Positions 2,600 through 21,539 are shown, counted from the first letter of the stretch. The stretch: 32,000 nucleotides of DNA from Nitrosopumilus ureiphilus (GCF_013407185.1 NZ_CP026995.1:1009483-1041482), one strand, 5' to 3'. The notes: a model not told the origin generated them from the sequence alone. Program-made: numbers and translations.

Positions 2600-3118
2600 A
2601 TGAATTATACTGAAAACATCAAAAAAAGAATCATACTTGTAATTGTCGCAGTTGTAGCATACATTTTTGTTCCAATTCCAATCAGCTTGTCGATGCTTTC
2701 ATTTCTTTATTCTCCATCTTTCCCCCTTGCAGGGATTGTGATGCATACAATTCAGATTTCTGTGTTGATGATATTGTTGTATGGAGCATTAGCATGGGTA
2801 AAACCATCACTTGTCCCTTCATATATCTCAAAGAAAGTTATTACTGCAATAATTTGTGTGATTATAATTTTATCTATGTTACCTAGTGGGCTATTATCCC
2901 TAGAGTCTACAGGAAGTTGTACAATTATTAACAATTATCAGGGAGTTATAACCACAAGTAGCAATGTTCATTCCACAGAACAACAATGCATTGATAGTTG
3001 TATTGATGGTGGAAATACAAATAATCAATATAACCAAAAAAATTGTGAGTTTACTGGTGTTGGAACTTCATGGTCAAAAACCCCTGAGGATTTCAAAGGA
3101 TACAAACCAAATATCTGA
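2600..3118 (+). CDS. Hypothetical multi-pass membrane protein with Cys-rich C-terminal tail
   Basis: 172-aa ORF with three to four long hydrophobic segments, then a polar tail with five Cys. I recognise no family. Confidence 0.6.
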   Translation: MNYTENIKKRIILVIVAVVAYIFVPIPISLSMLSFLYSPSFPLAGIVMHTIQISVLMILLYGALAWVKPSLVPSYISKKVITAIICVIIILSMLPSGLLSLESTGSCTIINNYQGVITTSSNVHSTEQQCIDSCIDGGNTNNQYNQKNCEFTGVGTSWSKTPEDFKGYKPNI

Positions 3119-3147
3119 GAGAGTTGAATTAGAGAACGAAAACTAGA

Positions 3148-3167
3148 GTTCAAACCTGTATGGATTT
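3148..3167 (+). promoter_or_regulatory. Upstream box GTTCAAACCTGTATGGATTT (copy 1)
   Basis: Exact core shared with 6059, 9735 and 15499. It lies 37 nt upstream of the TATA-like TTTTATGAATA (3185), which is 32 nt upstream of the ATG at 3217. Confidence 0.55.
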
Positions 3168-3216
3168 ACACATACAATAGAATGTTTTATGAATACATGA
3201 ATTTTAGAAAAACAGA

Positions 3217-4053
3217 ATGAAAACTAATCTTGTGATAATTATTTTGGGCATTATAATTACTATTTCTGTTATTGTAGGGGGACTCTTTATTTTCCAATCC
3301 CCATCACAAAGTATACAATGTGATGTTGGATATTTGCCAAAAGCACATGCTTCATTGATATACAGTTCCATAAACGATGTTTACCTTTCTGCTAATGTCA
3401 TAGTAGTTGGAACCATCCAAACCCCAAGTAATGGATCTAATTTTCTGGTAAATGTCTCTGAATATGTCAAAAATCCTCGACAAGAAAATATGTTGATATT
3501 GGATTTGTCATATCCTCCTTCAAATATAATCAACTCTAATGAGAAGCATTTTTCTCCAAATGAAAATGCACTTTTGTTTCTAAATGGACCTGATATAGAG
3601 AACAAATTCAAGATAATACCATACTCTGTCAGAATTCCAGAGGATTCCATGTCTGGAAAGGATTTGATAAAAGGAATAGAGGTAAGAGCCATGGAAAAAA
3701 GACTAGTGATGGAACAGGGACAATCTGCAAAGTTTGTTTTATGTCTTGACTCTTTTTTTGGATATAATGAAGATGTTCCTCTGAGGATATCTGGGTTCAG
3801 CATCTATGATTCTTCAGGTAACGGAAAATTATATGAAGACCCAAGCAAACTAGAGGAATTTGGAATATTATTAAACATACCTCAAATAACGGCAATCTCT
3901 GACAAAACCGTATCATTTGAAGTTCCCGTACATATCAAAGACGATGCAATGAAAGGAAGATACTTTATTGACATTGAACATAAAGATGGAAACTCCTTTG
4001 AAGAATTGTATTGGAAACGAGGATCAATACAACTGCATGTGTTTTTGGAATAA
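3217..4053 (+). CDS. Hypothetical secreted/anchored protein (MKT-start family of leaders)
   Basis: 278-aa ORF. N-terminus MKTNLVIIILGIIITISVIVGGLFIF is a signal anchor. The mature part begins near a single Cys (QCDVGYLP...VVGTI...VNVSEYVKN), loosely resembling the start of the 7581 protein. Confidence 0.7.
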   Translation: MKTNLVIIILGIIITISVIVGGLFIFQSPSQSIQCDVGYLPKAHASLIYSSINDVYLSANVIVVGTIQTPSNGSNFLVNVSEYVKNPRQENMLILDLSYPPSNIINSNEKHFSPNENALLFLNGPDIENKFKIIPYSVRIPEDSMSGKDLIKGIEVRAMEKRLVMEQGQSAKFVLCLDSFFGYNEDVPLRISGFSIYDSSGNGKLYEDPSKLEEFGILLNIPQITAISDKTVSFEVPVHIKDDAMKGRYFIDIEHKDGNSFEELYWKRGSIQLHVFLE

Positions 4054-4206
4054 TTGGAGAAAATGAAACTAGACATTTAATAATTATGTCTATTTGATAC
4101 ATAATTTTCATAAAATGCTATTTCGTATTTTATCTATTCCTAAAATTTGTATTTTTACTAATGAATCATCAGTGCTTATTATATAGAAAAATTCGATCCA
4201 TCGTCT

Positions 4207-5493
4207 ATGGCAGGTATGATAATTCTTGGAATCAGTGTTGTTTTAGCACTGTTTTTTGCCACAAATTCTGTTTTTGCCGATTCAGTTGATACAAGTGAAC
4301 AAATCACTCTTTCAAAAGATCTTGAAAATAATTCTGTTGCGCAAGACATTCTAAAAAAAATTGAAAAAAGCAAGAAATGGATTGCACAAATAGAACAAAG
4401 AAATTTTGAAGCCCTGGAAAAACAAAAAGAACTAGAGAAAAAAAGAGCAGAGGCTATACAAATTCTAGAGAAAAAACTAAAAAAATGGGAAGATCTTTGG
4501 GAATACTATACCTTTGATAAAATGCTTGAAAGTGCACTTGAAAATAGTCCTGCAAAATATACTTCCAGCACATATGATCATCCGCTAAAATTTACTGCAT
4601 CAAAGATTAATGCGGGACGTGATGCATTACACAAAGTCATTCTTGAAGGTGGAGGACCAGAAAAAGCAAGAGAGGCTTTTGTTATTGCAGCCAAAATAAC
4701 AAGAGCAGAGATGCTTGCTGCCAATAGTCTCTTTAATGTTATTAATAATAATGCATACTATAACCAGCAGATTCTCTTTAGTTCTGATGGTAACTTTGAG
4801 GAGATTATTTCTGGAGAACAACTAAGAAAATATTATCAAGATTATAGAACAAACCCTGGCTATCTACAAGCAAATCCATTTGACAAAATATCTTGGGAAG
4901 ATCTTGGCAAGAATAACCCAGATACTGAATGCAGACAGGATCAAGTATTGGTGTATAGAACACATGCAGATGATTATGTATGTACAACAGAATACACTGC
5001 TGAAATGTGGGTACACCATAAAATGGGAACTGTGGTAACTGATACATTTTTAGAAACAAAAGATCCTGTAGATGTAAAAAAATTCCAACAAGACAGAATT
5101 TTTGAAAAAGTAAAAAACCTCAATTCAAAAATTGAATCTATGCAAAAACATAATGAGTTAAAAATATCTGATACAAAAAAGAAATACACTTCTATTTTTG
5201 TGAACATGGAAACAGAACAAAATGAAGAGGAAAAAAAAGTAATTGAGAAATTCAACAACTCTGGTTCTATGTCTAAAAAAACGTTTAGTCAGCAAATTTC
5301 TGATATTCGAGAAAAATACAAGCAACTAGAGGAAACTGTTGTGGATGAACAGTCTCGCATTCTGGAAATTCTAGAGAATCAACATCAGACAAGCATCAAT
5401 AATTTTGTAAAAAACTACGAATCTGATTCTGAAATGAGAATAATATGGAATTCACAGAATCCTGTCTTTGAAGCAGAAATATCTTTATCGTAA
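4207..5493 (+). CDS. Hypothetical secreted coiled-coil protein with a Cys-pair module
   Basis: 428-aa ORF. Signal peptide MAGMIILGISVVLALFFATNSVFA/DS, with Lys/Glu-rich heptad-like stretches at both ends. Central ECRQDQVLVYRTHADDYVCTTEYTAEMWVHHKMG resembles the Cys-pair module in three neighbouring proteins. Confidence 0.75.
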   Translation: MAGMIILGISVVLALFFATNSVFADSVDTSEQITLSKDLENNSVAQDILKKIEKSKKWIAQIEQRNFEALEKQKELEKKRAEAIQILEKKLKKWEDLWEYYTFDKMLESALENSPAKYTSSTYDHPLKFTASKINAGRDALHKVILEGGGPEKAREAFVIAAKITRAEMLAANSLFNVINNNAYYNQQILFSSDGNFEEIISGEQLRKYYQDYRTNPGYLQANPFDKISWEDLGKNNPDTECRQDQVLVYRTHADDYVCTTEYTAEMWVHHKMGTVVTDTFLETKDPVDVKKFQQDRIFEKVKNLNSKIESMQKHNELKISDTKKKYTSIFVNMETEQNEEEKKVIEKFNNSGSMSKKTFSQQISDIREKYKQLEETVVDEQSRILEILENQHQTSINNFVKNYESDSEMRIIWNSQNPVFEAEISLS

Positions 5494-5668
5494 ATTATTT
5501 TACATCTGTCTATTCCTAGAACGAAATTCGCTAAAGTGCAAAATCTATGTCACTGATTATACTCCCTGTACCATTTCCGGTGGAACCAATTTGAACCACA
5601 AAACAACTCATGTAACCAAATCCATTAGGATTTACATCATAGTTAGGTTACTGATCCTTGTTTTACAC

Positions 5669-5998
5669 TCACATAATCTGAATTCCGTGTGATCTCTCAT
5701 GAGATATTAGATCTTCTTTGTATGTAACAAACCCACAAATCGTACATCGTGAAAGACCAAAATGCTCAATCATCACTTTTTTTGCAATGATTACTGTGTC
5801 TGAATCTGATGGAATAATCTGTAACTCCTTTATCTTTCCCGTCTTTTTTAGATAATATTCTAATTCATCTTTTGTTACCCTGGGATCACTCGTTGTAATG
5901 ATGCTGTCTTTTTCTTTGACAATATCAAACCTTTTTTCTTTTAGATAGGATGCAATCTCATCAGATAGCTTTTCATCAAAAGCACAATCTATAATCAA
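5669..5998 (-). CDS. Small protein with C-terminal C2H2-type zinc finger
   Basis: 109-aa ORF ending in CTICGFVTYKEDLISHERSH (C-x2-C-x11-H-x3-H, with Phe and Leu at the usual hydrophobic positions). No signal peptide. Confidence 0.65.
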   Translation of the reverse strand: MIIDCAFDEKLSDEIASYLKEKRFDIVKEKDSIITTSDPRVTKDELEYYLKKTGKIKELQIIPSDSDTVIIAKKVMIEHFGLSRCTICGFVTYKEDLISHERSHGIQIM

Positions 5999-6058
5999 CA
6001 GTTATTATCACTCTCTTAAGTTTAAATTTATTTTGTACACAAAAACATGACTTTAATT

Positions 6059-6076
6059 GTTCAAACCTGTATGGAC
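6059..6076 (+). promoter_or_regulatory. Upstream box GTTCAAACCTGTATGGAC (copy 2)
   Basis: Same core as 3148, 9735 and 15499. It lies 36 nt upstream of CTTTATGAATA (6095), which is 35 nt upstream of the ATG at 6130. The spacer ACTGATCATTCAAACACTTTATG is nearly identical to the one at 9757-9780. Confidence 0.55.
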
Positions 6077-6129
6077 TCACTGATCATTCAAACACTTTAT
6101 GAATATCCCATTATCCATCTAGTCATATT

Positions 6130-7302
6130 ATGAAATATTTTGTAATTTTCTTGGTATTGATGATGTTTGTAGGCACAATTGCTCCTGTATTAGGTTTTGA
6201 GATTCATGATCTTGACTATGAAAATTCCCCATATCAAAACAAGAAGACTCCATCCCTTGGAAAACCAGTAGAACTATTCTATCAAGTTGTAAACCATGCT
6301 CCAAAAAATCAAAGCTATGATGTTATGATTTCAATTACAAATCTTGATGAGAAAAAACAGGTTCACTCTAAACAGTACCAATATGAAATTCCATCAGGTA
6401 AATTTATTGATATTATTTGGAAATTTACGCCAGAAACTTCTGGTCTTTATCTTGTAGATGTGACTGAGAATCATTACAAATACACAAAACATATTTTTGC
6501 AGTGCCTGAAAATAACGATTTTAAAAAAATTCACAAGACAAATCCTGTATTACTTGAGAACCAAAGCCCAAGACAACAATTCCGTATGGGTATTGATCCA
6601 AAAGAGATATTTTGTAAAGATGAATTATACCTTGCACTAAAATCCTCAGGACTTCCTGTTTGTGTGACCCTTGATACATTAATAGAATTTAGACAAAGGG
6701 ACATCATCATTCCTGATGTGATTGATTATGATCGAATTGGTTTTGCGGTTTCAGAAAATCAATTCATAAAAATGTTGGATGAAAACAATATCGAGTATGA
6801 TCGAGAAGAATTACTATTGGTCTCAGGATTTGCTCAACTTTCACTTCCGCCAACAAGTGGCTATTGCGGATATGTTCTAGATAAAACCCCCGAAGACTAT
6901 TGGTTTTCTAGCTCCTATCATTTTGACACTTTGTTGAGTTCCAATCTTTATGATGAAAATCCAAATCCATGTATCAGTGCGATGAGTTTTACATGTGAAT
7001 GTTCAATTCAAACACAACTAAAAGAAAATGAATTAACAGAATTATCATACTTTGATGAATCTCAAGAAAAGCATGTAGGGAATATGTTTCGGGATTATCT
7101 TAATGAAGGGGGAAAGATTGCAAATGCCCCAAACTCATTTATCATTGGAAAATACAACATGGATTTGGATTCTGACATCACTTTGTTTTGTGGACAATTT
7201 CAGGGAAAACAATACTGGCATTTTACAGGCTCAATTAATGACACAAAGATATCTGATTGGGGACGAATCGGATGGACGACCCAAACTATGTGCAATAAAT
7301 GA
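6130..7302 (+). CDS. Hypothetical secreted protein (Ig/CARDB-like N-terminal region plus Cys-pair module)
   Basis: 390-aa ORF. Signal peptide MKYFVIFLVLMMFVGTIAPVLG. Residues 146-191 (SPRQQFRMGIDPKEIFCKDELYLALKSSGLPVCVTLDTLIEFRQRD) match the module in the 8569 and 9805 proteins. Promoter and leader are duplicated at 24814-24873 (minus strand). Confidence 0.8.
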   Translation: MKYFVIFLVLMMFVGTIAPVLGFEIHDLDYENSPYQNKKTPSLGKPVELFYQVVNHAPKNQSYDVMISITNLDEKKQVHSKQYQYEIPSGKFIDIIWKFTPETSGLYLVDVTENHYKYTKHIFAVPENNDFKKIHKTNPVLLENQSPRQQFRMGIDPKEIFCKDELYLALKSSGLPVCVTLDTLIEFRQRDIIIPDVIDYDRIGFAVSENQFIKMLDENNIEYDREELLLVSGFAQLSLPPTSGYCGYVLDKTPEDYWFSSSYHFDTLLSSNLYDENPNPCISAMSFTCECSIQTQLKENELTELSYFDESQEKHVGNMFRDYLNEGGKIANAPNSFIIGKYNMDLDSDITLFCGQFQGKQYWHFTGSINDTKISDWGRIGWTTQTMCNK

Positions 7303-7358
7303 CAACCCAATATCTTTTACTTTTGATGAATCTGCAATTGTCAAACAACAATGAGAAA

Positions 7359-7574
7359 ATGAAAACTAGACATATCTTGATACCTATTGTAATTTTTTTT
7401 ATAATTGTTGGATTGATGACATATTTTGACTATTCAAAACTAACAACTCCGATTAACGGAATTCCGATAGAGGAATATTGTGATCAATTCCCAAATCCTT
7501 TTTGTACTGAAAGACCATTAGATTTGGACTTTTTTGAATATCTACGGTATAAAATATCCTCTTGGAATGGTTGA
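7359..7574 (+). CDS. Small membrane-anchored protein (MKT start)
   Basis: I prefer the ATG at 7359 (MKTRHILIPIVIFFIIVGLMTYF) over the track start at 7299. It is preceded by GAGAAA and carries the ATGAAAACTAGA cassette seen at five other gene starts. Confidence 0.6.
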   Translation: MKTRHILIPIVIFFIIVGLMTYFDYSKLTTPINGIPIEEYCDQFPNPFCTERPLDLDFFEYLRYKISSWNG

Positions 7575-7580
7575 TTTGAA

Positions 7581-8051
7581 ATGAAAACTAAACTTTTGGT
7601 AATTGTGGGGTTGATTGTATTTTTGATTCCTTTATCAGATGTATATGCTTCATGTGCCACATTTATTCCAGGAATAGACAACATCAAGGCTTATGATGAA
7701 GCATCTACTGTGTTTTTAGGAACCGTCATTAAAGCACATGAACAACAAAATTCAGATTCTGGCACAGCATTTTCAGAATATACTACATTTGATGTGCATT
7801 ATCTTTTCAAAGGTAGCCTAATTGAAGGCCAAGTGAGAACAAATCCTAGGAGTTCTACAGGATATGAGGGATTTGAAGAAGGTCAGACTTATTTTGTATA
7901 TGCATATGATCCTGCAAATGAAGTCTATGAATGCATAGCGCCAACACCTTTTCCATTTGCATTTCCAATTCTTATTCTACATTTCCCTTTTGTGTTGATA
8001 CCCATTGGAATCATTAGTGGTGTAGTGATTATTTGGAGAAAAAGAAAATGA
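7581..8051 (+). CDS. Hypothetical secreted protein with C-terminal TM anchor and basic tail
   Basis: 156 aa. Signal peptide MKTKLLVIVGLIVFLIPLSDVYA/SC. The mature N-terminal Cys followed by AYDEASTVFLGTV...FDVHYLFKG loosely resembles TIMP/netrin-like OB modules (weak call). The C-terminus PFPFAFPILILHFPFVLIPIGIISGVVIIWRKRK is a TM segment plus basic cluster. Confidence 0.75.
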   Translation: MKTKLLVIVGLIVFLIPLSDVYASCATFIPGIDNIKAYDEASTVFLGTVIKAHEQQNSDSGTAFSEYTTFDVHYLFKGSLIEGQVRTNPRSSTGYEGFEEGQTYFVYAYDPANEVYECIAPTPFPFAFPILILHFPFVLIPIGIISGVVIIWRKRK

Positions 8052-8572
8052 AAACCAACTTTATTCTGCTAACTACCACTATAGTATTTGCGTTACTTAC
8101 AGTTACATTTGGATATGGTGGACTATTATCAAATTATCAACACTTGACATGTTGGGATTCATGTGCTTGGGAAATACTTGAGGGATGTGATGAAATCTGT
8201 AAAGATGTCCCTGAAAAACGAACAGAATTAACAAGAGAAGAACAAAAAGAAAAAGGCCAAAAACTCAGAGAGATATACGATCCAATCCTTGAGAAATATA
8301 TTAGTTCAATAGGAATTATGGGAGGACCATTTCCAAGAGGCCACGGGTATTCATATCCTGTATCTCTAGAAGATAATCTTGATGCTAATTTTGATTATTC
8401 TGACGGATTTTTCATGCATTCTCAAATATTGGAGATAGTCTCTCCATTAAAACAAACAGATGATGCAGGAAAAATAACTATTGTAAAAGAAATGTTGTTT
8501 CCAGAGATGTATGTATTCTGGTTATTTGTCATAGCAATTGGGATAATTGTAGGATTCAAGATACGAAAATGA
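8048..8572 (+). CDS. Hypothetical secreted protein with C-terminal TM anchor and basic tail
   Basis: ATG at 8048 overlaps the upstream TGA (ATGA). MKTNFILLTTTIVFALLTVTFG leader, then a Cys-rich segment CWDSCAWEILEGCDEICK. C-terminus FPEMYVFWLFVIAIGIIVGFKIRK. Confidence 0.75.
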   Translation: MKTNFILLTTTIVFALLTVTFGYGGLLSNYQHLTCWDSCAWEILEGCDEICKDVPEKRTELTREEQKEKGQKLREIYDPILEKYISSIGIMGGPFPRGHGYSYPVSLEDNLDANFDYSDGFFMHSQILEIVSPLKQTDDAGKITIVKEMLFPEMYVFWLFVIAIGIIVGFKIRK

Positions 8573-9678
8573 AAACTAGAGTTTTGATTCCAATGCTTGC
8601 ATTATCCTTGTTGGCTTCTACAACTGCACTTTCATTTGGTGAATCATCTGATGAGTATGCATTGGGAATAGTAGAATGGCAGTATGACTGTCATCCACTT
8701 GTATTCAATACGGGTCTGATCAGAATCACTGATCCTGACATGAACATTGATGATGATGTGCCTGACAGATTTGACATTGAGGTTCTGTCTGATTATAATG
8801 AGAATAATATTCAAAAATATGTCAATCCCGTTTACACAGTAATTGAAACTGGTGATTCAACAGGGGTATTTGAGACGGTGGTATTTTGGGGAGATCCAGG
8901 TGACGAGGGAATCGGACATAGAGTGCCAATCTGGGATAACGTTACAGTTACTGCAAAGTATACTGATCATACACTGCCTTTATCTTACTTGGATTCAAGT
9001 TTGGACATTACAAGTTCTATAATTGTAAGAGATGTAAAACCAATAGAGAAAAAGAATTCTGACGGAATATCGGGTTTCTATTATGTATATGAGCCTTGCA
9101 CTGTGGAATTATTGGATATGAAAAACGACCCAAAATACACTGTAAACCACGATTTTATTTTTCTGCCCCCACTAAAACAAATCAAATCTGGAATTGCAGC
9201 AAAAGATGTGATTTGTAAGGAAGAATTACATCTTGTCAAGAAAAATTGGAAAGAAAATTGGGTTTGTGTCAAAAATTCAAGTATGGAGAAGCTAACATCA
9301 CGTAATTACATTTATCATAGTTTTGGCTCATCTGGAGTGGAAATTCCATCAGATGAATCAATACCCCGTATTCCATTGCTCGGATTGCCCGAAATTGATA
9401 ATGTGGAGATACAATCAATGATAGACTTGTTTGAAAACAGATACCACACATCTAAAATATCATTTGCTGGTTCAAACGTATTACTGAACGCTACACATAT
9501 CGGAGGCAAGACAGTGTCTCTTGTTATACAGTCCTTAGATGATAAAGTGACTGCCACATTGACTTGCAATCATATGGACTGGAGAAATCAAGAAGTAATC
9601 ACTGAAAACGTACTGGATTATCTAAAAAATGTGAATTGCTTTAATCCCTCAATGGAAGAAACAGGAAATGAAAACTAA
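8569..9678 (+). CDS. Hypothetical secreted protein (TDPDMN beta-module plus Cys-pair module)
   Basis: 369 aa with an ATGA overlap to the upstream gene. Signal peptide MKTRVLIPMLALSLLASTTALSFG. Residues about 33-135 are paralogous to the N-terminal domain of the 24019-24837 protein. Residues 200-247 form the PLKQIKSGI...C...L.L...VCV...KL..RNY module. Confidence 0.8.
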   Translation: MKTRVLIPMLALSLLASTTALSFGESSDEYALGIVEWQYDCHPLVFNTGLIRITDPDMNIDDDVPDRFDIEVLSDYNENNIQKYVNPVYTVIETGDSTGVFETVVFWGDPGDEGIGHRVPIWDNVTVTAKYTDHTLPLSYLDSSLDITSSIIVRDVKPIEKKNSDGISGFYYVYEPCTVELLDMKNDPKYTVNHDFIFLPPLKQIKSGIAAKDVICKEELHLVKKNWKENWVCVKNSSMEKLTSRNYIYHSFGSSGVEIPSDESIPRIPLLGLPEIDNVEIQSMIDLFENRYHTSKISFAGSNVLLNATHIGGKTVSLVIQSLDDKVTATLTCNHMDWRNQEVITENVLDYLKNVNCFNPSMEETGNEN

Positions 9679-9679
9679 A

Positions 9680-9753
9680 GTTCAAACCCACAAAAATCCA
9701 CACAGTTCAAACCTATTAGGTTCCAAACAATCTAGTTCAAACCTGTATGGATT
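9680..9753 (+). promoter_or_regulatory. Tandem array of three GTTCAAACC boxes (two degenerate, one full)
   Basis: GTTCAAACCcacaaaaatcc (9680), GTTCAAACCtattaggttc (9705) and GTTCAAACCTGTATGGATT (9735). These are followed by CTTTATG (9774) and the GTG start at 9805. Confidence 0.55.
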
Positions 9754-9804
9754 TGTTACTGATCATCAGAACACTTTATGTTCTTGCATGTATCCTGACC
9801 ATTT

Positions 9805-11304
9805 GTGAAGTGTTGTATTGCCATTTTGTTTTTGGTGCTTGTTTTTTCATTAACATACAATGCATATGCCATAGAATTCAAACCACTTGTAGCCAAAGAT
9901 GCAGATGGAGTGAATATATCTAATGGAATAGTTGGCAAACCAATTATTTTTCAACATACCGTTTCAAATGGTGAACTTAGCGCAGTAGATTTTGAAATCG
10001 TATTTTCCACATTCACGCCAGACGATAAAACACTAGATCAACAAATACAACGGATTCACTTGGGGCCAGGTGAAACAAAAATCATGCCCTATCAATTTGT
10101 TCCAATAAATGAAGGAAATTACATTACAAGTGTGTTTTCTGAGGAATATCTTGCCGCAGATTCAATATCCTTTCCAGCATTAGATGGTGCTAAAAATTAC
10201 AAAAAAGAAACAATCCATCTGTATTCTAATTCTTCTGATAGTGACTGCTCGTTTGCATGCACGAAGCCTTCAGAGAAAACTGTCAGTGTTGGAACCATTG
10301 TAGAATGGGTAAATGATTCTAATGATGATCATAGTATTTCAACTGGGACCTATCAAGAAGAAGATAATGGAATTGGTTGGAGTTATGATAAAAGATTTTC
10401 AGGAAGTTTTGGCCCAAATGAAACATTCTCATTTCTGTTCTTGGAGCCAGGAGAATACCAGTATTTTTTAGCAGAGCACAGATTGAGCACGACTCCTGTT
10501 GTAGGAACAATTCATGTGTCATCAGATATTTTTCCTGCAACCGATAAAACAATTGATATTTTGCAAGGAATAATGAACGACAAGAATTCCAAAATTCCAA
10601 TTACGTCACTTTCTGTAAATCCAAAAAATTCGATAATAACTGTGGGGATTGATGACCGAAAACATGCTTTTTTTACTATTGAACTTTACAAAAAAATACT
10701 TTACAAACAAGTTGGAAATGTGTATCTTAACATAATTCCAAATCCAACTCCAAGAATAGGGCAAATGTGTGATGTAAATGATGAAACACAAGTAAGAAAG
10801 GAACTTGAAAAAGACCCAGTGGTGCAAAAATTCCTAGAATTGTACACTTCATCTACTTTTGAGCATTTTAAAACATATGATGAGCCTGGTAATCCACGTA
10901 CTTATTCGGAATTTCGTTTTGGCTCATTTCTTCTCAGAGTTCTTGTTTTGTCATATGATGAAAGCGGGGTTTGTTATCCCGTATATGGATATTCTGTAAA
11001 TCATGATAATTCTTTATCTGAGATAAAACAAAATTTGTTTGAAAATTTCTATTCCAAGTCAGATAAAATACAAGAAGCGATAAACGCAGTAAAGAATCTT
11101 GCAAATCCCCTAAAACAACTCAAATCCGGAATTCCAATATATGAAATGCAATGCAATGAGGGATTACAACTCACATTAAAAAATTCTAATGACAATCCAG
11201 TCTGCATCAAAGAAACCAGTGTTAAAAAACTATCCATGCGCAATTATGTTTCTGATATAATAATAATCGGCTTAAAACACTCATTGCCGGAAATTGAAAA
11301 ATGA
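9805..11304 (+). CDS. Hypothetical secreted multidomain protein (Ig-like N-term, cupredoxin-like domain lacking the Cys ligand, Cys-pair module)
   Basis: 499 aa with a GTG start. Leader MKCCIAILFLVLVFSLTYNAYA. The segment VSVGTIVEWVNDSNDDHSIS...GEYQYFLAEHRLSTTPVVGTIHV follows the cupredoxin pattern. ANPLKQLKSGIPIYEMQCNEGLQLTLKNSNDNPVCIKETSVKKLSMRNYV is the Cys-pair module. Confidence 0.8.
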   Translation: MKCCIAILFLVLVFSLTYNAYAIEFKPLVAKDADGVNISNGIVGKPIIFQHTVSNGELSAVDFEIVFSTFTPDDKTLDQQIQRIHLGPGETKIMPYQFVPINEGNYITSVFSEEYLAADSISFPALDGAKNYKKETIHLYSNSSDSDCSFACTKPSEKTVSVGTIVEWVNDSNDDHSISTGTYQEEDNGIGWSYDKRFSGSFGPNETFSFLFLEPGEYQYFLAEHRLSTTPVVGTIHVSSDIFPATDKTIDILQGIMNDKNSKIPITSLSVNPKNSIITVGIDDRKHAFFTIELYKKILYKQVGNVYLNIIPNPTPRIGQMCDVNDETQVRKELEKDPVVQKFLELYTSSTFEHFKTYDEPGNPRTYSEFRFGSFLLRVLVLSYDESGVCYPVYGYSVNHDNSLSEIKQNLFENFYSKSDKIQEAINAVKNLANPLKQLKSGIPIYEMQCNEGLQLTLKNSNDNPVCIKETSVKKLSMRNYVSDIIIIGLKHSLPEIEK

Positions 11305-11783
11305 AAACTAGTTTTTTGATAATTATTGGAATTACTGTAATTCTAGCTGGCGGATTTATCTATGTGTCTTACATTCAATACACACATTACAAAACTTGGG
11401 AAAACAACGAACATTGGTATTATCATCCTGATGGGTATGAAGTGGAGTGCGAAATACGATTGTTTCAAACTCCAGGTCAGTGTGAAGCCGTAGATGAAAA
11501 TGGAATTATCGTAGACACAAAAACAGGATTGGGAAATTGGAATGGTGTAAAATGGTTAGGCGATCCAGATTATTGTAAAGATCAAGGCGGTAATTGGAAT
11601 GACACTGCAAGAGGTTGTTATGGATTATATGAGATGTGTGAAAAAGATGGAGGTATTCCTAGATTTTTAAAAAAGAGTTTGCCTTTTCCAGACATTGAAG
11701 AAAACAAACCCATTGAATATCTCATGGATTGTTATTATGGAATTTACCCAATTGAGGATAATTACTTAGGTGGACCTGAATAA
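11301..11783 (+). CDS. Hypothetical membrane-anchored Cys/Trp-rich protein (MKT start)
   Basis: 160 aa with an ATGA overlap to the upstream gene. MKTSFLIIIGITVILAGGFIYVSY anchor, then seven Cys and many Trp/Gly/Asn. Confidence 0.7.
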   Translation: MKTSFLIIIGITVILAGGFIYVSYIQYTHYKTWENNEHWYYHPDGYEVECEIRLFQTPGQCEAVDENGIIVDTKTGLGNWNGVKWLGDPDYCKDQGGNWNDTARGCYGLYEMCEKDGGIPRFLKKSLPFPDIEENKPIEYLMDCYYGIYPIEDNYLGGPE

Positions 11784-11853
11784 AAAATACAATAATGAAA
11801 TTTAATCATGGACTATCAGTTTTGTCCAAATCTGTTAAGGTTTGAACTAGGAA

Positions 11854-12198
11854 CTATTTTACTAAATTCTGAACCCTGGGAATCATGCTGACAAAATCCA
11901 TATGCTCGCATTGATCTTTGTGTTTGCTGCACGTCAATTTCCCGTTCTTATCTTTCACCTTTACAGTTGTTCCAATCTTGTAATCCATTAGAATGACAAA
12001 ATCTGACTCTACATCCATCAGTTCAAGATATGCCATAAAGCTAGAGTAGTGCTTTAGAAAATCCCTTACAGCATATGCTGCCATCTGTGATTTGTTAGTA
12101 AACCCTAGATTCCTTGACACATTTGACTCTGAGAACTTTTCAAGCTGGTCAATTAGCTCCTTTGGAAGCATTATTGACTTCCACTTTGTCTTATCCAT
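11854..12198 (-). CDS. Ribbon-helix-helix-like DNA-binding protein with C-terminal CxxHxxxCxH cluster
   Basis: 114 aa. N-terminus KWKSIMLPKELIDQLEKFSESN...SQMAAYAVRDFL fits a strand-helix-helix layout and is paralogous to the N-terminus of the divergent 12288 gene. The C-terminal part contains LTCSKHKDQCEH. Confidence 0.6.
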   Translation of the reverse strand: MDKTKWKSIMLPKELIDQLEKFSESNVSRNLGFTNKSQMAAYAVRDFLKHYSSFMAYLELMDVESDFVILMDYKIGTTVKVKDKNGKLTCSKHKDQCEHMDFVSMIPRVQNLVK

Positions 12199-12235
12199 AT
12201 GATATATGTATAATATGCTTTGTTTAATACTAATC

Positions 12236-12253
12236 TCTGATACATGTATCAGA
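12236..12253. promoter_or_regulatory. Perfect 18-bp palindrome TCTGATACATGTATCAGA (candidate operator)
   Basis: Self-complementary by hand check. It lies in the 89-bp divergent intergenic region, immediately upstream of AAATATTTAATAA (TATA-like, about 30 nt before the ATG at 12288). An extra half-site TCTGATA occurs at about 12272. Confidence 0.6.
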
Positions 12254-12287
12254 AATATTTAATAATGCTATCTGATAAATGTAACAT

Positions 12288-12608
12288 ATGAAAGTAATAT
12301 TGGGCAAGCAGAAAAAATGGCGTAACTGTATCATTTTGGGCTCAGTGCTCAACGAAGTGGAAAATTATTGCAAAGACAACGGCTGTGATTTTGCAAACCC
12401 AACACAGTTTATCGGATATGCTGTAAGAAAAGAGTTAGACTTTAGAAAGGGCATAAAATCATCAAAAATATTTACCGAAGATCAGATTAAAGAAAAGCTA
12501 GACAGATGGATTGATCAAGTAAAACAAGAAATGGAATTGGATAGCAGACTAGAAAAAGTTTTCAGAAACAGCAAAACACATGCAAAAACTCTGAGTGAAA
12601 ATATTTGA
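12288..12608 (+). CDS. Ribbon-helix-helix-like DNA-binding protein (paralog of 11854-12198)
   Basis: 106 aa. KWRNCIILGSVLNEVENYCKDNGCDFANPTQFIGYAVRKEL aligns with the N-terminus of the divergent neighbour. The C-terminal part is helical and charged. Confidence 0.6.
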   Translation: MKVILGKQKKWRNCIILGSVLNEVENYCKDNGCDFANPTQFIGYAVRKELDFRKGIKSSKIFTEDQIKEKLDRWIDQVKQEMELDSRLEKVFRNSKTHAKTLSENI

Positions 12609-12669
12609 TAGTAAATCCTTCTAAAAAATATTGGTTTGATAGTGTACACAAGTATCTGAATTTTGCAAA

Positions 12670-12825
12670 ATGAATGAACTGACATCATTGCAAAAACCAA
12701 ACCTTTTGGTGCGCTATCAATTCAATGATGATGAAGAAATCACACACGTTTGGTTAACCCAAAGTCAATATGAAAACTTTCGAATACTTCCAATTGTAAA
12801 ATTCTGCGAGATTGTAGAGAGTTAA
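12670..12825 (+). CDS. Possible small ORF (51 aa), below the track threshold
   Basis: Runs ATG 12670 to TAA 12823-12825: MNELTSLQKPNLLVRYQFNDDEEITHVWLTQSQYENFRILPIVKFCEIVES. Composition is protein-like, but there is no other support. Confidence 0.3.
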   Translation: MNELTSLQKPNLLVRYQFNDDEEITHVWLTQSQYENFRILPIVKFCEIVES

Positions 12826-13105
12826 TCAATCCGTATGGTTCTTAATTATTATTCACAACAAACAAGATCTGAATGTCTCTACAATATTTTCTGGTAAATT
12901 AAATGATAAATAAAACATAATGGTCATTCACATACACATTTGTAGTGAACTATGTTGTCATTATCCATCTTCATTTTAATATGACAGCAAGTGTCTTTCA
13001 CATTTGCATGCGCAGTATGGTAGTCACCTGTTGCCCACTTTTTTCTTTACTAGGCCACATTTTTTCCTTCAACTTCTTCAGGCAACAACGCCTCAGTTGC
13101 CTGCT

Positions 13106-13330
13106 CTAAAAATTCAAACTTGGCTGAAAAATCCCACTCTTCTTCTTTCTTTTTTTTCTGTGGCTGCCCACTATGATTATGATAACAGTTCCAAAAACTA
13201 CTATCACAATAATTATGATTGTGCCTATTATTACAATGACTACTAGTACGTTGTCTGATTGACTTTCGAGTGTCTCTTCTTGCTGTGCATAGAACAGAGA
13301 TGTAGTCCCTGCTATTAGCATGCTAAACAT
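13106..13330 (-). CDS. Small single-pass membrane protein with poly-basic tail
   Basis: 74 aa: a short hydrophobic N-terminus, an acidic stretch, a roughly 30-residue Ile/Val TM segment, then HRKKRKKK. The basic tail is encoded by an A8 run (13150-13157 on plus). See the finding on an alternative -1 frame. Confidence 0.5.
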   Translation of the reverse strand: MFSMLIAGTTSLFYAQQEETLESQSDNVLVVIVIIGTIIIIVIVVFGTVIIIIVGSHRKKRKKKSGIFQPSLNF

Positions 13331-13491
13331 GATATCTAAAAGTAGTCTGCTTATTGTGTTTGGGTGTGGATACTATGTTAAAAGTGTTATTCTATGATTC
13401 TCTTACTCTTTGTGAACTATGATCTGAATGATTTGAAAATGCTTTTGATATATGCGATATTTTTATTAATATGTGAAACTCATTAAATAAC

Positions 13492-13911
13492 ATGCTCATG
13501 CCTGAATCTCAAAGCATATGGTACAACGAGCTAGGCTCAAAGATGGCCCTTGATGCAGACGGTAAAGGGGGACTGACTGGCACGTATGTATCGGCAGTAG
13601 GTTCAGCTCAAGACGAGTATGCCTTGGTGGGTCGTTACAATCCTGCACAATCCCCGCCCACAGTAGGTTGGACGGTCCAATGGGTAAACTCGCACAAGAA
13701 GACTAATTCCGTGACGTCGTGGTCAGGGCAGCTGATGAATGTTGATGGTGTGCCTACAATTTTGACCACATGGCTATTGACACAGCAGACAAAACCTGAG
13801 AATGAATGGGAATCGACTATGGTTGATCAGGATGTGTTTACTCCAAACAAACCAACGGATGAGCAGATACGACTGGCAAAGATGAAACGTGGTTGCTCAA
13901 ATCCCGTCTGA
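13492..13911 (+). CDS. Avidin/streptavidin-family biotin-binding protein homologue, no signal peptide
   Basis: 139 aa, collinear by eye with core streptavidin: WYNELGS, GGLTGTYVSAVGSA..YALVGRY, VGWTVQW, SVTSWSGQ, TTWLLT, EWESTMVDQDVFT. An in-frame TGA at 13474-13476 rules out an N-terminal extension. A TATA-like TTTTTATTAATA lies about 30 nt upstream. Confidence 0.85.
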   Translation: MLMPESQSIWYNELGSKMALDADGKGGLTGTYVSAVGSAQDEYALVGRYNPAQSPPTVGWTVQWVNSHKKTNSVTSWSGQLMNVDGVPTILTTWLLTQQTKPENEWESTMVDQDVFTPNKPTDEQIRLAKMKRGCSNPV

Positions 13912-14004
13912 GTAATGTTGGGATTTTTGTTATAACCTTTGCATCAATTTGAATTGTAGTAATCGTTAAATGCTTGAAAATATTATCCTCATAATGTAAC
14001 ACTG

Positions 14005-14238
14005 ATGAACAATATCTTAAAAAGAATGGATCCTTTGATAATCCAAAATATTATGAAATTAATTTATGAAAACAGATCAATACGAAAGACTCCTCTTATG
14101 GAAAAGGCAAATATGAATTATTTACGTCTAAACGCATATTTAAAATGGTTAGAACTGATTGATTTTATAAAAATTGATGAGTCAAATATATTTTTGACCG
14201 AAAGCGGTTCAAAATTTATTTTCCGATGTTTGAAATAA
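14005..14238 (+). CDS. Small winged-helix DNA-binding protein (HTH_45-like)
   Basis: 77 aa. IIQNIMKLIYENRSIRKTPLMEKANMNYLRLNAYLKWLELIDFIKIDESNIFLTESGSKFI follows the pattern of small archaeal wHTH proteins (name, KT, ANLsY..l..YL..L...gli, y.LTekG..fl). Confidence 0.6.
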   Translation: MNNILKRMDPLIIQNIMKLIYENRSIRKTPLMEKANMNYLRLNAYLKWLELIDFIKIDESNIFLTESGSKFIFRCLK

Positions 14239-14330
14239 TGTTAATATGATATTATCATATGCTAATATTTAAGAATTATGAACTGCTGCAGTTCATGTTG
14301 TTTAATTATTATTAGTTTGTGAGAATCACA

Positions 14331-14774
14331 ATGACTACAAAAAATAATAGAAAACTGACAAAGATCATCCCCCTAGCGTTTGGGTTGGTAGCAATCATTG
14401 CTGGAATGTCTGTTGTTCCTTCATTAGGTCAACAAGAAGCTACTGCAGCAATCAATTGTCCATCAGGAGGCGGTGCATGTTACGGAACATCTGGTAACGA
14501 CACGATCTATGGAAGTGCAAACAGGGATATCATTCTTGCTGGTGCTGGTGATGACACGATCTTTGGCAATGGTGGAGATGATAACATCTATGGTGAAGCA
14601 GGAAAAGATACCATTAGTGGCGGTGCTGGAAATGATAATCTATATCATTCCGGTTCAGCATCAGGTTCAGATGGATTCGCCGATTCACTTGATGGTGATT
14701 CTGGTTCAGATACATGTCATTGGAACTCATCAGATGGTGATACAATGGCAAATTGTACCTCTATACCTTGGTGA
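14331..14774 (+). CDS. Secreted protein with hemolysin-type (RTX) calcium-binding nonapeptide repeats
   Basis: I prefer the ATG at 14331 (the track uses GTG 14319). Sec-type leader MTTKNNRKLTKIIPLAFGLVAIIAGMSVVPSLGQQEATA/A. Six consecutive GGxGxDxUx-like units follow: GTSGNDTIY, GSANRDIIL, AGAGDDTIF, GNGGDDNIY, GEAGKDTIS, GGAGNDNLY. Confidence 0.75.
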   Translation: MTTKNNRKLTKIIPLAFGLVAIIAGMSVVPSLGQQEATAAINCPSGGGACYGTSGNDTIYGSANRDIILAGAGDDTIFGNGGDDNIYGEAGKDTISGGAGNDNLYHSGSASGSDGFADSLDGDSGSDTCHWNSSDGDTMANCTSIPW

Positions 14775-14975
14775 TAATCACACCCCCTTTATTTTTTATG
14801 ATAAACTAATTTTAATATATTAAAAATATGATAATATATTATTCTCATATTATGATAAATCAAAAATCAAAATTAGTTCGATTAGAAAGAAAAAATTTAT
14901 TTATTAAAACAATTAAGAATATTCCTGGACAATAAAATACATCAACTCTCATCAAAAAGAAATTTTGGAATTATT

Positions 14976-15467
14976 TTGATAATGATTGTTATTTTATGTT
15001 TTGTTTTTTTATTTTCTCTTCAACTTCTTTTCAATCCTTTTTACATTATTACGAGTGGAAGTATGTTGCCAACACTTGTTCAAGAAGATATGGTTATTAC
15101 ATCTGATGAATCTTTTTTTGATCTAAAAGTAGGTGACATAATTGTTTTTAAGAGCAATTACAATAATTTAGATCGTACATATGTACACAGAATAGTAGAA
15201 ATCATGGATGATGATGAAAGGTATGTTAAAACCAAAGGGGATTATAATCCTTCTTCACTAGAAGGTTTGGATTATCCCATAAAAGAAAGTAATTATGTTG
15301 GTAAAGTAATTATTGTACTCCCAAAAATCGGCATGTTTATTAAAATTTTTTCCCCTCCAATAAATTACTATATCATGATTATTTCTTCTAGTTTACTACT
15401 GTTTTTTTTCCGAAAAAATATATTTTATTGTTTGTATAAATCAAAAGAATTTTCTGAGAATACCTGA
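14976..15467 (+). CDS. Signal peptidase I, archaeal/ER (Sec11/SipW) type
   Basis: 163 aa with an N-terminal TM, then the SGSMLPTL Ser box, YVHRIV His box and TKGDYN box, and a C-terminal TM. Start is TTG 14976 or ATG 14982. Confidence 0.8.
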   Translation: MIMIVILCFVFLFSLQLLFNPFYIITSGSMLPTLVQEDMVITSDESFFDLKVGDIIVFKSNYNNLDRTYVHRIVEIMDDDERYVKTKGDYNPSSLEGLDYPIKESNYVGKVIIVLPKIGMFIKIFSPPINYYIMIISSSLLLFFFRKNIFYCLYKSKEFSENT

Positions 15468-15498
15468 TGGAATAACCTTTTAGGATTAACGCAACATT

Positions 15499-15517
15499 GT
15501 TCAAACCTGTATGGATT
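15499..15517 (+). promoter_or_regulatory. Upstream box GTTCAAACCTGTATGGATT (copy 4)
   Basis: Same core as the other copies. It lies 43 nt upstream of CGTTATAAA (15542), which is 34 nt upstream of the ATG at 15576. Confidence 0.5.
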
Positions 15518-15660
15518 TGGTAAAATTCAGATTTCATCAAACGTTATAAACAAAATATTATCAGTATCAACACAAATGCACAATACATCCACACTTGTTT
15601 TTAGGATATCATAATATCTGAAAGTGAATCAATTGGATTATAAAATAACATTTTCAGTCA

Positions 15661-16083
15661 TTGCAGCAATCATCCACTATTGATGGAATAGTGATCTATC
15701 CTGATGAACCAAAAAATATCAAGCATACTTTTCGCAGTCACAATCCAGTTTTAGTCATCTTTGATGTTAATCCACAAAAAATACCTTACAGTGTAATGAT
15801 TACAAATTATGAGTGGTCCGAGGAAGTTCTAAACGTAGTGGAATCAGATTCTGCACAACATAGAATAAAACATGTCAGATACGGTACATATGACTTTGAC
15901 TTTGCAAATCTGGGTGATGAGGAACTGTATCTAACAATAGATATCAAAGATGCAAAATATGATGAAATAAACAACTTTCATAACTCCATCTCAATTATGA
16001 TCTACATTTACTATTCTGTATTTTTTGGAGGGATAATTATTAGTAGTGTTGGTGCTGTCATTTGGAGGATGACAAAACGATAA
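15661..16083 (+). CDS. Hypothetical protein with C-terminal TM anchor; 5' end possibly disrupted
   Basis: 140-aa ORF that can only start at TTG 15661 and has no leader. The C-terminus ISIMIYIYYSVFFGGIIISSVGAVIWRMTKR is a TM segment plus basic tail. The promoter-proximal ATG (15576) is in another frame and hits TAA after 12 codons. Confidence 0.5.
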   Translation: MQQSSTIDGIVIYPDEPKNIKHTFRSHNPVLVIFDVNPQKIPYSVMITNYEWSEEVLNVVESDSAQHRIKHVRYGTYDFDFANLGDEELYLTIDIKDAKYDEINNFHNSISIMIYIYYSVFFGGIIISSVGAVIWRMTKR

Positions 16084-17327: not shown

Positions 17328-19364
17328 ATGGTAAAACCAAATACTGGTCTTGGAATTGCATGTTTTTTAATACTGGGCATTTCATTTTTAATTCTATTTG
17401 CATACTTGACATTTTTTGACATCTATGCAACACAAACTTCAAGTGTTGAGGGTAATTTTGACGGAGTTGATTTTACCAAAAAGCGAATTTTTGTATTGGG
17501 TGCAAGTTCAGTTGACGTTCTAAATTTTACTAGCATTGATGAATATTTGGCTAATCATGGCAAGAAAGATTACGAAGTGTACAATCTTACCGAAGATGGA
17601 GACAGACCTTCAGAAAGAATTGCACAGATTGACAAGATAATTGACATGGAGCCTGATTTGGTTTTATACGGACTGGGAATGAGGGAATTTGGATATGATG
17701 ATTTTTCCCCAGGCCTAACAAAATGTTTGCCTCTGAATTATGGTGCATTTTGGGAGATGCGTAAAGAAATACCAGACAAAGAAAAAATTACAGATATCCC
17801 TCAGGATTCAAATGTTTTTGAGCCTCTGGCAATCATAAAAAATGAGATCAAAAAGCAAACTGTGCCAGGATTCCCAGATTTTGTAGAGCCCAAATTTGCG
17901 ACTGTTTCATTTTTGAATAACATTTTGTATCAAAAAGAAGTTCAGACAGAGTCATTTCTTGATAAAAATTATACGGAATTAAAAAAACAGGGAGGGGTAA
18001 AAGAGATTGTTCCAAACAGCAAGTTAAAAGAAAAATTGAAAAACATGGTTTTTGGATACTGCGAAGAAATGAACAAGGATGAATTGGCACATCTTGGGAT
18101 AATTCTAGACAGATTACATGAAAAAAATATCGACGTGGCAGTTTTTGTTGCCCCGTACAGCGGGCCATATCTAGATGTATTGTCAGATCTTTCAATCCAA
18201 CATTATTTTGTAGGATTACACAAGATTACAAACAATGCTAATGTGAAACTCTATTCATTTTTGGACAGATACAAAGAACTGGACATATTTCATGATGCCA
18301 CTCATGTAGCAGCTAATGCAAAATCATCTGTGTTTAGCAAAGATTTTGCATTTTTTACACTAAACATCATAGACAGCAGAGAGAGAAACTACGAATCACA
18401 GAATCTATTAGAATTTCAATACGGAAAATCATCAAGTGAAAATTTGAACAGTAAACAAATACGTAAACTGCATTCATTTGAAAATCTCAATCTTTCAGGT
18501 ATTGTTCTAGCAAATGAAGATTTGTCCGGAAAGAAAATTGCAAATACAGACTTGACTCAAGCAAATCTGGAATCTGTTGATTTTTCACGCATCATTATGA
18601 GTGATTCAGTTTTGAATGGAGCCAACATGTATTATGCAAATCTCTCTAATGCAGAAATTACACACACATCCATGAACGGTGCAAATTTGTTGTTTGCAGA
18701 TGTAACAAATGCAATATTGTCCGATATTGATTTGAGGTACTCTCTGGTTATGGGGGTGAATTTCTCAAATCTGAACATGACGAACATTGATTTTTCAGGA
18801 TCAAATATGTTGAAATCAAATTTTAGAGATTCCCACATGACAAATGTGGATTTTTCAAGTGTAGACTTATCTCAGACCGATTTTAGCGGTGCTCAAAGGG
18901 ATAATAAAACGAGATTCTCAGGCACAAAACTGATCGAATCGAATCTCAGTAATTTTGACATGTCATATTTGGATCTGTCCGGAGTTGTTCTGTCTGGGGC
19001 AAATCTTACAAATACCTCATTTAGAGGGTCAGAATTTATTTTCTCTGATCTGTCCGGAGTTGATCTTTCTACATCAGATATGAATGGGGTGACACTTTTA
19101 GCATCTGATTTGAGTTTTACAAATATTCCAAATGCACAATTCTCACAGATTAATGCAAAGCATGCAAATTTTGCCAATGCAAATTTGATTGGTGCAGACT
19201 TGTCTTTTGCAGATTTTCTTGGCGCACGGTTTGTAAATACTAATTTAACTGGGGCAAATCTTACAGGAACCCAACTAAAGTTTGCCAATTTTACAGGAGC
19301 CATTCTGGATAATGCTAATCTGCGGTGTCTCGATCATACCATATGCAATAGTTTGAGGGAGTAA
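17328..19364 (+). CDS. Membrane-anchored fusion: SGNH/DltD/AlgJ-like domain (tentative) plus long pentapeptide-repeat domain
   Basis: 678 aa. N-terminal TM GLGIACFLILGISFLILFAYLTFF. The middle region has IFVLGASS (block-I-like Ser) and FHDATHV (DxxH-like). The last roughly 290 aa are uninterrupted A(D/N)LxX pentapeptides (ANLSNAEITHTSMNGANLLFADVTNAILSDIDL...). The stop is 1 nt before the MBOAT start. Confidence 0.8.
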   Translation: MVKPNTGLGIACFLILGISFLILFAYLTFFDIYATQTSSVEGNFDGVDFTKKRIFVLGASSVDVLNFTSIDEYLANHGKKDYEVYNLTEDGDRPSERIAQIDKIIDMEPDLVLYGLGMREFGYDDFSPGLTKCLPLNYGAFWEMRKEIPDKEKITDIPQDSNVFEPLAIIKNEIKKQTVPGFPDFVEPKFATVSFLNNILYQKEVQTESFLDKNYTELKKQGGVKEIVPNSKLKEKLKNMVFGYCEEMNKDELAHLGIILDRLHEKNIDVAVFVAPYSGPYLDVLSDLSIQHYFVGLHKITNNANVKLYSFLDRYKELDIFHDATHVAANAKSSVFSKDFAFFTLNIIDSRERNYESQNLLEFQYGKSSSENLNSKQIRKLHSFENLNLSGIVLANEDLSGKKIANTDLTQANLESVDFSRIIMSDSVLNGANMYYANLSNAEITHTSMNGANLLFADVTNAILSDIDLRYSLVMGVNFSNLNMTNIDFSGSNMLKSNFRDSHMTNVDFSSVDLSQTDFSGAQRDNKTRFSGTKLIESNLSNFDMSYLDLSGVVLSGANLTNTSFRGSEFIFSDLSGVDLSTSDMNGVTLLASDLSFTNIPNAQFSQINAKHANFANANLIGADLSFADFLGARFVNTNLTGANLTGTQLKFANFTGAILDNANLRCLDHTICNSLRE

Positions 19365-19365
19365 A

Positions 19366-21485: not shown

Positions 21486-21539
21486 GTACTATGTATTTAT
21501 AGTACTTTTACCATAATATTATGGTAATAAACCATAATA
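21486..21539. promoter_or_regulatory. Operator-like repeat cluster: GTACTAT-N6-ATAGTAC and perfect 18-bp palindrome TACCATAATATTATGGTA plus a third half-site
   Basis: Inverted repeat at 21486-21505. Perfect palindrome at 21509-21526 (hand-checked). ACCATAATA is repeated at 21531-21539. The cluster overlaps the A/T-rich TATA position about 30 nt upstream of the ATG at 21551. Confidence 0.55.

Follow-up and report, generated by a model that had tools for sequence, protein, structure and literature searches.

A putative upstream operator at secreted-protein promoters in a genomic island of Nitrosopumilus ureiphilus

The 32,000-nt stretch of Nitrosopumilus ureiphilus DNA analyzed here (GCF_013407185.1, NZ_CP026995.1:1009483-1041482; the window, with positions counted from its first letter) contains a 17-nt box, GTTCAAACCTGTATGGA, in four exact copies on the + strand, starting at 3148, 6059, 9735, and 15499, as a first-pass annotation of the sequence had reported. 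The box corresponds in sequence to one part (left arm plus spacer) of a dyad 24 bp long, GTTCAAACC-TGTATG-GATTTGAAC, within a family of the form GTTCAAAYC-N6-GRTTTGAAC, and copies 1–3 precede genes for secreted or membrane-anchored proteins that are non-homologous overall. We propose, with a probability of about one half, that the 17-mer or dyad is an upstream operator, the putative site of a sequence-specific DNA-binding protein. We favor this reading because conservation of the box stops within one base, because its gap of 20–23 nt to the TATA box is held across two unrelated spacer types, because it is noncoding and occurs as a dyad and in tandem, and because it is separable from the core promoter.

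Conservation and promoter position of the box

No further copies of the 17-mer with one to three mismatches were found in the window. In shuffled versions of the window, 0.17 matches are expected at three mismatches or fewer, and none of 100 shuffles reached four. When the four copies are compared in pairs, mean identity is 1.00 within the 17-mer and 0.24–0.36 in each flanking 17-nt block, the background for random 17-mers being 0.28; on either side, a single base separates full identity from background, and the spacers of the four copies are otherwise unalignable. The 9-mer GTTCAAACC that forms the left arm is also exact at 9680 (+) and 9705 (+), where degenerate copies had been annotated, and at 11839-11847 (-). 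All seven exact 9-mer sites lie outside the listed open reading frames (ORFs), that is, in 20% of a window that is 80% coding. These observations support the conclusion that the box is noncoding and that its sequence is sharply constrained.

At copies 1–3, TTTATG starts at 3186, 6096, and 9775 (37–40 nt past the start of the motif) and is followed after 30–34 nt by the start codons at 3217, 6130, and 9805, which places the box ~69 to 46 nt before the start codon. The genes encode proteins of 278, 390, and 499 aa, each with a signal-peptide-like N-terminus of MK plus a hydrophobic stretch. Copy 1 (3148-3171, +) consists of the exact 17-mer (3148-3164) and a partly kept right arm, GATTTACAC, and abuts a degenerate gene-start module, GAGAACGAAAACTAGA (3132-3147, +), in which ATG has become ACG. 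Its promoter (3178-3193, +) combines TAGAATG, which resembles a transcription factor B recognition element (BRE), with the TATA box TTTATGAA, and has the identical sequence in the related loci L011/L089 and L068; the 278-aa gene, with a hydrophobic N-terminus (3217-4053, +), starts 69 nt past the start of the box. Copy 2 (6059-6075, +), whose right arm is degenerate, lies in a divergent intergenic region shared with the - strand gene at 5669-5998. Its TATA box, TTTATGAA (6096-6103, +), is preceded by CAAACAC and is conserved in orthologues, and the copy heads a close-packed run of secreted-protein genes (6130-9678, +) made up of the 390-aa gene and genes starting at 7359, 7581, ~8048, and 8569.

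Copy 3 (9735-9758, +; the exact 17-mer with right arm GATTTGTTA) is preceded by two degenerate tandem sites at 9680 and 9705 (9680-9728, +), 55 and 30 nt upstream of it. It is followed on the same strand by a palindrome, CTGATCATCAG (9759-9769), by AGAACAC (9768-9774), which shares the last two bases of the palindrome, and by TTTATG (9775-9780). The 499-aa gene, which has a GTG start and a signal peptide ending in AYA with I after it, and an overlapping 160-aa gene occupy 9805-11783 (+). The region between the 17-mer and the BRE contains a sequence, CTRATCATYAG (loci L025, L037, and L061 and window 9759), that we considered as a second box and rejected, as it has 3 matches in the window and 3.5 are expected.

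Copy 4 (15499-15515, +) likewise has a degenerate distal site 30 nt upstream (15469-15492, +), and 15474-15522 is 80% identical to 9710-9758. Downstream of it are a TATA-like sequence, CGTTATAA (15542-15549), which differs from the TTTATG type, and a 12-codon ORF (MHNTSTLVFRIS and a stop codon) that begins at ATG 15576; this unit (15542-15614, +) looks like a decayed transcription unit. The earlier statement that each copy is followed by a TATA box, a start codon, and a leader-peptide gene is thus correct for copies 1–3 and fails for copy 4. The first real ORF past copy 4 (15661-16083, 140 aa) has no N-terminal signal and ends in a membrane anchor. A GTG at 15624 opens a signal-like peptide (ending in KITFSVIAAIIHY and a stop codon) that runs into the 140-aa ORF in a different frame, and 15624-16083 may be a frameshifted gene. 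Directly upstream of copy 4 lie a gene for a secreted protein with RTX calcium-binding repeats (14319-14774) and then a signal-peptidase S26-like gene (14976-15467).

The - strand site is a dyad-family element, GTTCAAACC TTAACA GATTTGGAC (11824-11847, -), located 6 nt past the 3' end of a 114-aa gene (11854-12198, -). The annotation placed the core of this degenerate copy at 11839-11847, where the exact 9-mer lies. The element faces the end of a + strand gene and is not in promoter position.

To identify the core promoter we used orthologues of the 390-aa protein (54–61% identity) retrieved by protein similarity. All of them keep the footprint tAGAAsAmTTTATGAr 30–35 nt before the ATG, and the rest of their upstream DNA is unalignable. 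Because this footprint is conserved, TTTATG is taken as part of a BRE/TATA core, and on sequence grounds we regard this reading of AGAAC-TTTATG as sound. The box was said to lie upstream of TATA elements, and this is borne out: it stands 20–23 nt upstream of the core that the orthologues conserve. Archaeal TATA boxes are centered near -26, and so the first transcribed base would be in or beside the start codon, which would make the mRNAs from box-bearing promoters leaderless. In contrast, operon-internal genes of the island have GGAG followed by ATG.

A paralogous module provides a control. The segment 24814-24872 (-) is 88% identical to 6095-6153, the two forming a 59-nt inverted repeat that extends from the TATA box through the 5' region to codon 14 (MKYFVIFL...). 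The - strand segment lacks the 17-mer and has unrelated DNA at the position of the box, and the mature proteins of the two genes are unrelated. Because the modules match and the mature proteins do not, promoter and signal-peptide modules are evidently being swapped between genes. As the orthologues and the paralogous promoter all keep the core without the 17-mer, the box is a separable, lineage-restricted add-on. At two promoters of 390-aa orthologues elsewhere, other palindromes occupy the box position: CTGGTAATC-N7-GATTACCCAG in L082 (~560-600) and TTTCATAATC-N8-GATTATGAAA in L087 (~2570-2610). Both have AATC...GATT cores like those of the dyad family, and each is a single observation.

The dyad family and its distribution

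In 183 kb of Nitrosopumilus-like DNA, a scan for GTTCAAAYC-N5-7-GRTTTGAAC that allowed three mismatches found 24 elements, where ~1.3 were expected (~18-fold). The spacer is 6 nt long, giving a 9-6-9 arrangement, in 21 of the 24. All but one of the elements (23/24) lie in ~74 kb of loci in which the exact 17-mer occurs too, and ~101 kb of homologous loci from other species yielded one weak match. A full, near-perfect palindrome, GTTCAAACC TGTAT GGATTTGAAC, is present in L011/L089, L051, and L068. Family members are often arranged in tandem at intervals of 25–30 nt, as in the window (9680/9705/9735 and 15469/15499), in L068 (296/324), and in L089 (7354/7384). Other elements lie a few nucleotides past the 3' ends of small genes (L051, L089, and window 11824-11847) or directly after stop codons (window 9680 and 11824-11847, L051 position 3, and L089 7384).

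The exact 17-mer was also sought in larger collections. Species-genome contigs (596 Gb, 185,579 species genomes) contained 28 matches, with ~70 expected by chance; metagenome contigs contained 41, of which 8 were Nitrosopumilus-like. Among viral contigs there were 4 exact matches, none of them Nitrosopumilus-like, and a phage database had no match to the dyad element or to a 106-aa protein of the window discussed below. The motif is not widespread and is confined to a few close relatives. We assembled a set of 13 exact copies, the 4 of the window and 9 from Nitrosopumilus-like contigs. TTTATG is present at +37 to +40 in 9 of the 13, and in 7 (3 of the 4 in the window) a gene whose product begins with a signal-like sequence has its start codon at +68 to +74. 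The proteins encoded downstream have no overall homology, and several share one ~48-aa domain. The first-pass annotation did not recognize the motif as a described element, and we likewise found no description of it: a literature search on the motif string, on Nitrosopumilus promoter motifs, and on transcription start sites returned nothing relevant.

Comparison with other archaeal systems suggests how the box might act. The ribbon-helix-helix repressor F55 of SSV1 has tandem operators that overlap the core promoter, where it represses. These operators are similar in that a short repeat, often in tandem, stands at several promoters of a mobile-like region with small candidate DNA-binding proteins nearby; they differ in that our box lies upstream of BRE/TATA and in that the small proteins of the window have no confirmed DNA-binding fold. 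Ptr2, a member of the Lrp family in Methanocaldococcus jannaschii, has paired sites and activates by recruiting the TATA-binding protein (TBP). Its sites also lie directly upstream of BRE/TATA (cited in PMC4158304), but they have no sequence similarity to the box, and no Lrp-family gene was found among the window ORFs scanned. The Thermococcales glycolytic motif, TGM (TATCAC-N5-GTGATA; bound by TrmBL1/Tgr), is a short fixed-spacer inverted repeat found in several promoters and distributed patchily within its genus, being present in some species and missing in others (PMC4158304). Where TGM lies upstream of BRE/TATA its regulator activates (PMC4158304). TGM and the box differ in sequence and in phylum; the box has 9-bp arms, a 6-nt spacer, and, in the window, a degenerate right arm. 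Its neighborhood yielded no TrmB-family gene, and its targets are secreted proteins of unknown function and not a metabolic pathway.

Archaeal inverted-repeat sites upstream of BRE/TATA, namely TGM with TrmBL1/Tgr and the Ptr2 sites, are activator sites (PMC4158304), and because the box shares this position we propose that it serves activation. A DNA-binding protein would sit on the dyad just upstream of the BRE-like AGAAC and the TATA box and, judging from this position, would activate by aiding recruitment of TBP and transcription factor B. The weaker sites 25–30 nt further upstream could permit cooperative binding. The box heads transcription units for secreted or membrane-anchored proteins in the island that lies between purL and purF. 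We infer that a protein binds here, which way it regulates, and that transcripts begin at the start codon or close to it.

The regulator may be encoded within the island itself. Two small genes, one of 114 aa (-) and one of 106 aa (+), are divergently arranged at 11854-12608 around a perfect 16-bp palindrome, CTGATACATGTATCAG (12237-12252). Homologues occur beside dyad elements in other loci, as a pair in L051 and as 106-like genes in L089. Speculatively, this pair could encode the cognate DNA-binding proteins, perhaps ribbon-helix-helix-like ones. Neither protein has a Pfam family or a meaningful sequence match in the PDB, and single-sequence AlphaFold2 models of the 114- and 106-aa proteins had confidence scores (pLDDT) of 44 and 47 and were unusable. 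A 109-aa C2H2-like protein encoded at 5669-5998 (-) was considered and set aside, as its zinc-finger matches are all sub-threshold and it has no homologue at the other loci. In L089, a divergent HTH_20 regulator gene faces the box.

Several observations count against an operator. Each of the four window copies has a degenerate right arm, with 2–5 mismatches, which is unusual for the site of a symmetric dimer. Dyad members also occur at gene 3' ends, beside truncated gene starts, and across an integrase-bearing island. The copy in L051 sits between convergent genes and has no plausible target, the copies at window 15499 and in L061 precede ORFs of 12 and 15 codons, and in L060 and L067 the spacing is altered or the TATA box is mutated. 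In the species genomes, just 2 of the 28 matches fall in Nitrosopumilus metagenome-assembled genomes, one copy each, and no other species is above chance; the metagenome copies were found by exact search, and their exactness is no evidence of constraint. The promoters of the 390-aa orthologues at 54–61% identity in other Nitrosopumilaceae lack the 17-mer. Homologues of the 278-aa gene at 68–83% identity are operon-internal or have other upstream DNA, again without the box, so that the protein-retrieved orthologues without it span 54–83% identity; the box is kept, at equal distance, in the 88%-identical orthologue (L011/L089) alone. The proposal that the box defines a regulon of surface proteins is only partly supported, and a broad regulon is not: genes for non-homologous secreted proteins do follow the box, but they do so at 7 of the 13 copies, the set is small, limited to a narrow lineage, and partly decayed, and orthologues of the 278- and 390-aa genes retrieved by protein similarity lack the box.

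Recombination, relic, and RNA explanations

The integrase-bearing island raises the question of whether the dyad is a place where DNA is joined. Under this alternative, which we consider unlikely, it would serve recombination or mark junctions in a flexible island or cryptic integrated element. Modules such as promoters, secreted-protein genes, and pairs of small regulators would be joined or exchanged there, through a site-specific recombinase or through homologous exchange between repeats, and its promoter position would be a by-product. In the closest relative, L089, an island of ~11 kb includes both the box and the 278-aa gene. This island has a tyrosine-integrase gene (Pfam E = 7.5e-7) at its beginning and contains 6–7 dyad elements, all intergenic, two of them just 3' of the integrase gene. 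The same island has winged helix-turn-helix (wHTH) and small genes in common with L051 and, in part, with the 106-aa gene of the window; it is probably a cryptic integrated element. Elements of this kind with short attachment (att) sites are common in Thaumarchaeota (PMC6563490). The resemblance extends to the integrase-led L089 island with its wHTH genes and to the position of the window island in the pur cluster; it ends where the window has no integrase, and that source, as far as it was searched, describes no internal repeat family such as this one. The first-pass annotation had named membership of a larger mobile repeat as a finding that would tell against its reading, and to some extent this is what we see, as the 24-bp dyad family fills the L089 island.

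The shape and neighborhood of the dyad can also be read in terms of recombination. Its 9-6-9 inverted repeat is shaped like the core sites of tyrosine recombinases, and dyads lie beside pairs of small genes in L051 and the window. For the 278-aa unit, the window and L011/L089 are homologous from precisely the G of GTTCAAACC up to where a truncated gene start (...CTAGA) ends, and homology between the window and L037 has the same left boundary. That truncated start, GAAAATGAAACTAGA (4059-4073, +), is what remains of a lost gene downstream of the 278-aa gene; it is also truncated in L089, and in other lineages it opens the next gene. It belongs to a 16-nt gene-start module, GAAAATGAAAACTAGA, which combines a Shine-Dalgarno region with ATG AAA ACT AGA (MKTR) at operon-internal genes. 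The module is exact at 7355-7370 and 8565-8580, with variants at 3132, 4059, 9664, and 11297 (5 copies in the window, 0.16 expected), and is also found at L075 9997, L068 741, and L045 1179. It is identical in DNA sequence before non-homologous secreted-protein genes in several species and may be a recombination joint. Truncated copies mark places of gene loss, and in at least five places the left arm of the dyad directly follows a truncated or pseudo gene start of this type.

Other aspects of the same data favor the operator over such a junction. No integrase family was detected among the 30 window ORFs scanned. Homology breaks off where the left arm begins on its outer side and not in the spacer, where tyrosine recombinases cut, and the intergenic DNA upstream of the boxes is only 1–60 nt long, which forces any breakpoint to lie near the box. 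Other mosaic joints are found outside the dyad, one at the TATA box (6095) and others inside signal-peptide codons; the island thus recombines at many short conserved modules and not at the dyad alone. The constant 20–23 nt spacing to the TATA box, with two spacer types, is a better fit to a promoter element. A search around the L089 island gave no convincing pair of att repeats, and no flanking att repeats were found in the window.

Also in L089 (1-11600), the integrase gene adjoins a GATase gene, and there is a 166-nt internal duplication (2915-3080 and 7390-7555) in addition to two 100%-identical stretches (3594-3662 and 7570-7637).

An extension of both ideas seems to us quite unlikely, namely that the dyad family is the operator or junction system of an undescribed class of Nitrosopumilus islands or cryptic elements, with the dyads and the ultra-conserved GAAAATGAAAACTAGA modules together as portable joints and a small element-encoded DNA-binding protein that reads many dyads. 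If it were true, the portable joints would reshuffle promoters and secreted-protein genes and generate cassette-like variation of the cell surface.

The box might instead be an inert relic, the best-kept part of a ~55-nt promoter unit that was copied before different genes and has no dedicated factor. The box, the BRE-like AGAAC, and TTTATG do travel together before non-homologous genes, promoter and signal-peptide modules are shuffled in this island (6095-6153 and 24814-24872, 88%), the distribution is narrow and looks recent, and decayed copies are present. A relic should decay evenly, however, and the abrupt one-base drop in identity on both sides of the 17-mer does not fit that expectation; nor do the lack of copies with one to three mismatches in the window and the separability of the box from the core promoter. 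Gene conversion of exactly 17 nt at four places is implausible, and we consider it rather improbable that the box is a relic.

It is very improbable that the element acts in RNA as a hairpin that stabilizes, terminates, or processes the transcript of the upstream gene: full-dyad copies can form a hairpin of 9 bp (z -1.9 to -2.6, -8.9 to -9.0 kcal/mol) and several family members stand directly past stop codons, but the four window copies have no common fold (z +0.6 to -1.4, with differing pairings), and conservation covers the left arm and spacer and not two arms. In addition, copy 2 is not preceded by a gene on the same strand, the element is not followed by a T-tract, and Rfam has no match in the window.

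Three further classes were rejected. In a miniature inverted-repeat transposable element or insertion sequence, near-identical copies of at least 100 nt with terminal inverted repeats and target-site duplications are expected; here identity is confined to 17–22 nt, or to 49 nt at 63–80%. The tandem sites start 25–30 nt apart with 1–6 nt between units and at most three in a row, which does not match CRISPR repeats of 24–37 nt with unique spacers of ~30–40 nt. A tRNA-derived att fragment (T-arm) was set aside because no tRNA gene was found in the window, L089, L051, L025, L067, or L068. We conclude that the element is real and that it is probably cis-regulatory, most likely an archaeal upstream operator in a recombining island.

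The surrounding island and the significance of the box

The window island interrupts a pur gene cluster, with purQ/purL (19-2531) at one border and purF, DUF427, and purC (25043-28340) at the other. Most genes in the ~22 kb between purL and purF belong to no recognized family, and many of their products begin with MK and a hydrophobic stretch; the best protein matches of the window genes are hypothetical proteins of Nitrosopumilus species. The region thus resembles a flexible island whose genes encode secreted or membrane-anchored proteins. The G+C content of the window is 31–40% per 1-kb block and ~33% in most. The richest kilobase (13001-14000; 40%, compared with ~33%) contains an avidin-family gene (13492-13911; Pfam E = 1.6e-29), and its G+C content suggests a foreign origin for this gene. 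Further along are genes for a pentapeptide-repeat protein (678 aa) and then an MBOAT acyltransferase (17328-20868), and for a 371-aa protein that overlaps a DUF6036 nucleotidyltransferase (21521-23132), all of which are typical cargo of flexible islands. Beyond the purF border, tandem repeats of 69 nt and 30–36 nt (30178-30510) lie within overlapping - strand ORFs (30111-30552) and probably encode an Ala/Lys-rich repeat protein.

Ammonia-oxidizing archaea are abundant and slow-growing. To our knowledge, few if any cis-regulatory sites or factors have been characterized in them, and we know of no routine genetic tools for these organisms. The narrow distribution of the box and its decayed copies limit its general importance. 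Within the island, it marks transcription units of a hypervariable set of secreted proteins that is likely to be relevant to interactions with phage and at the cell surface, and a sharply defined 17–24-bp site of known geometry offers a concrete probe, as well as a case in which activation at leaderless promoters of this phylum could be studied.

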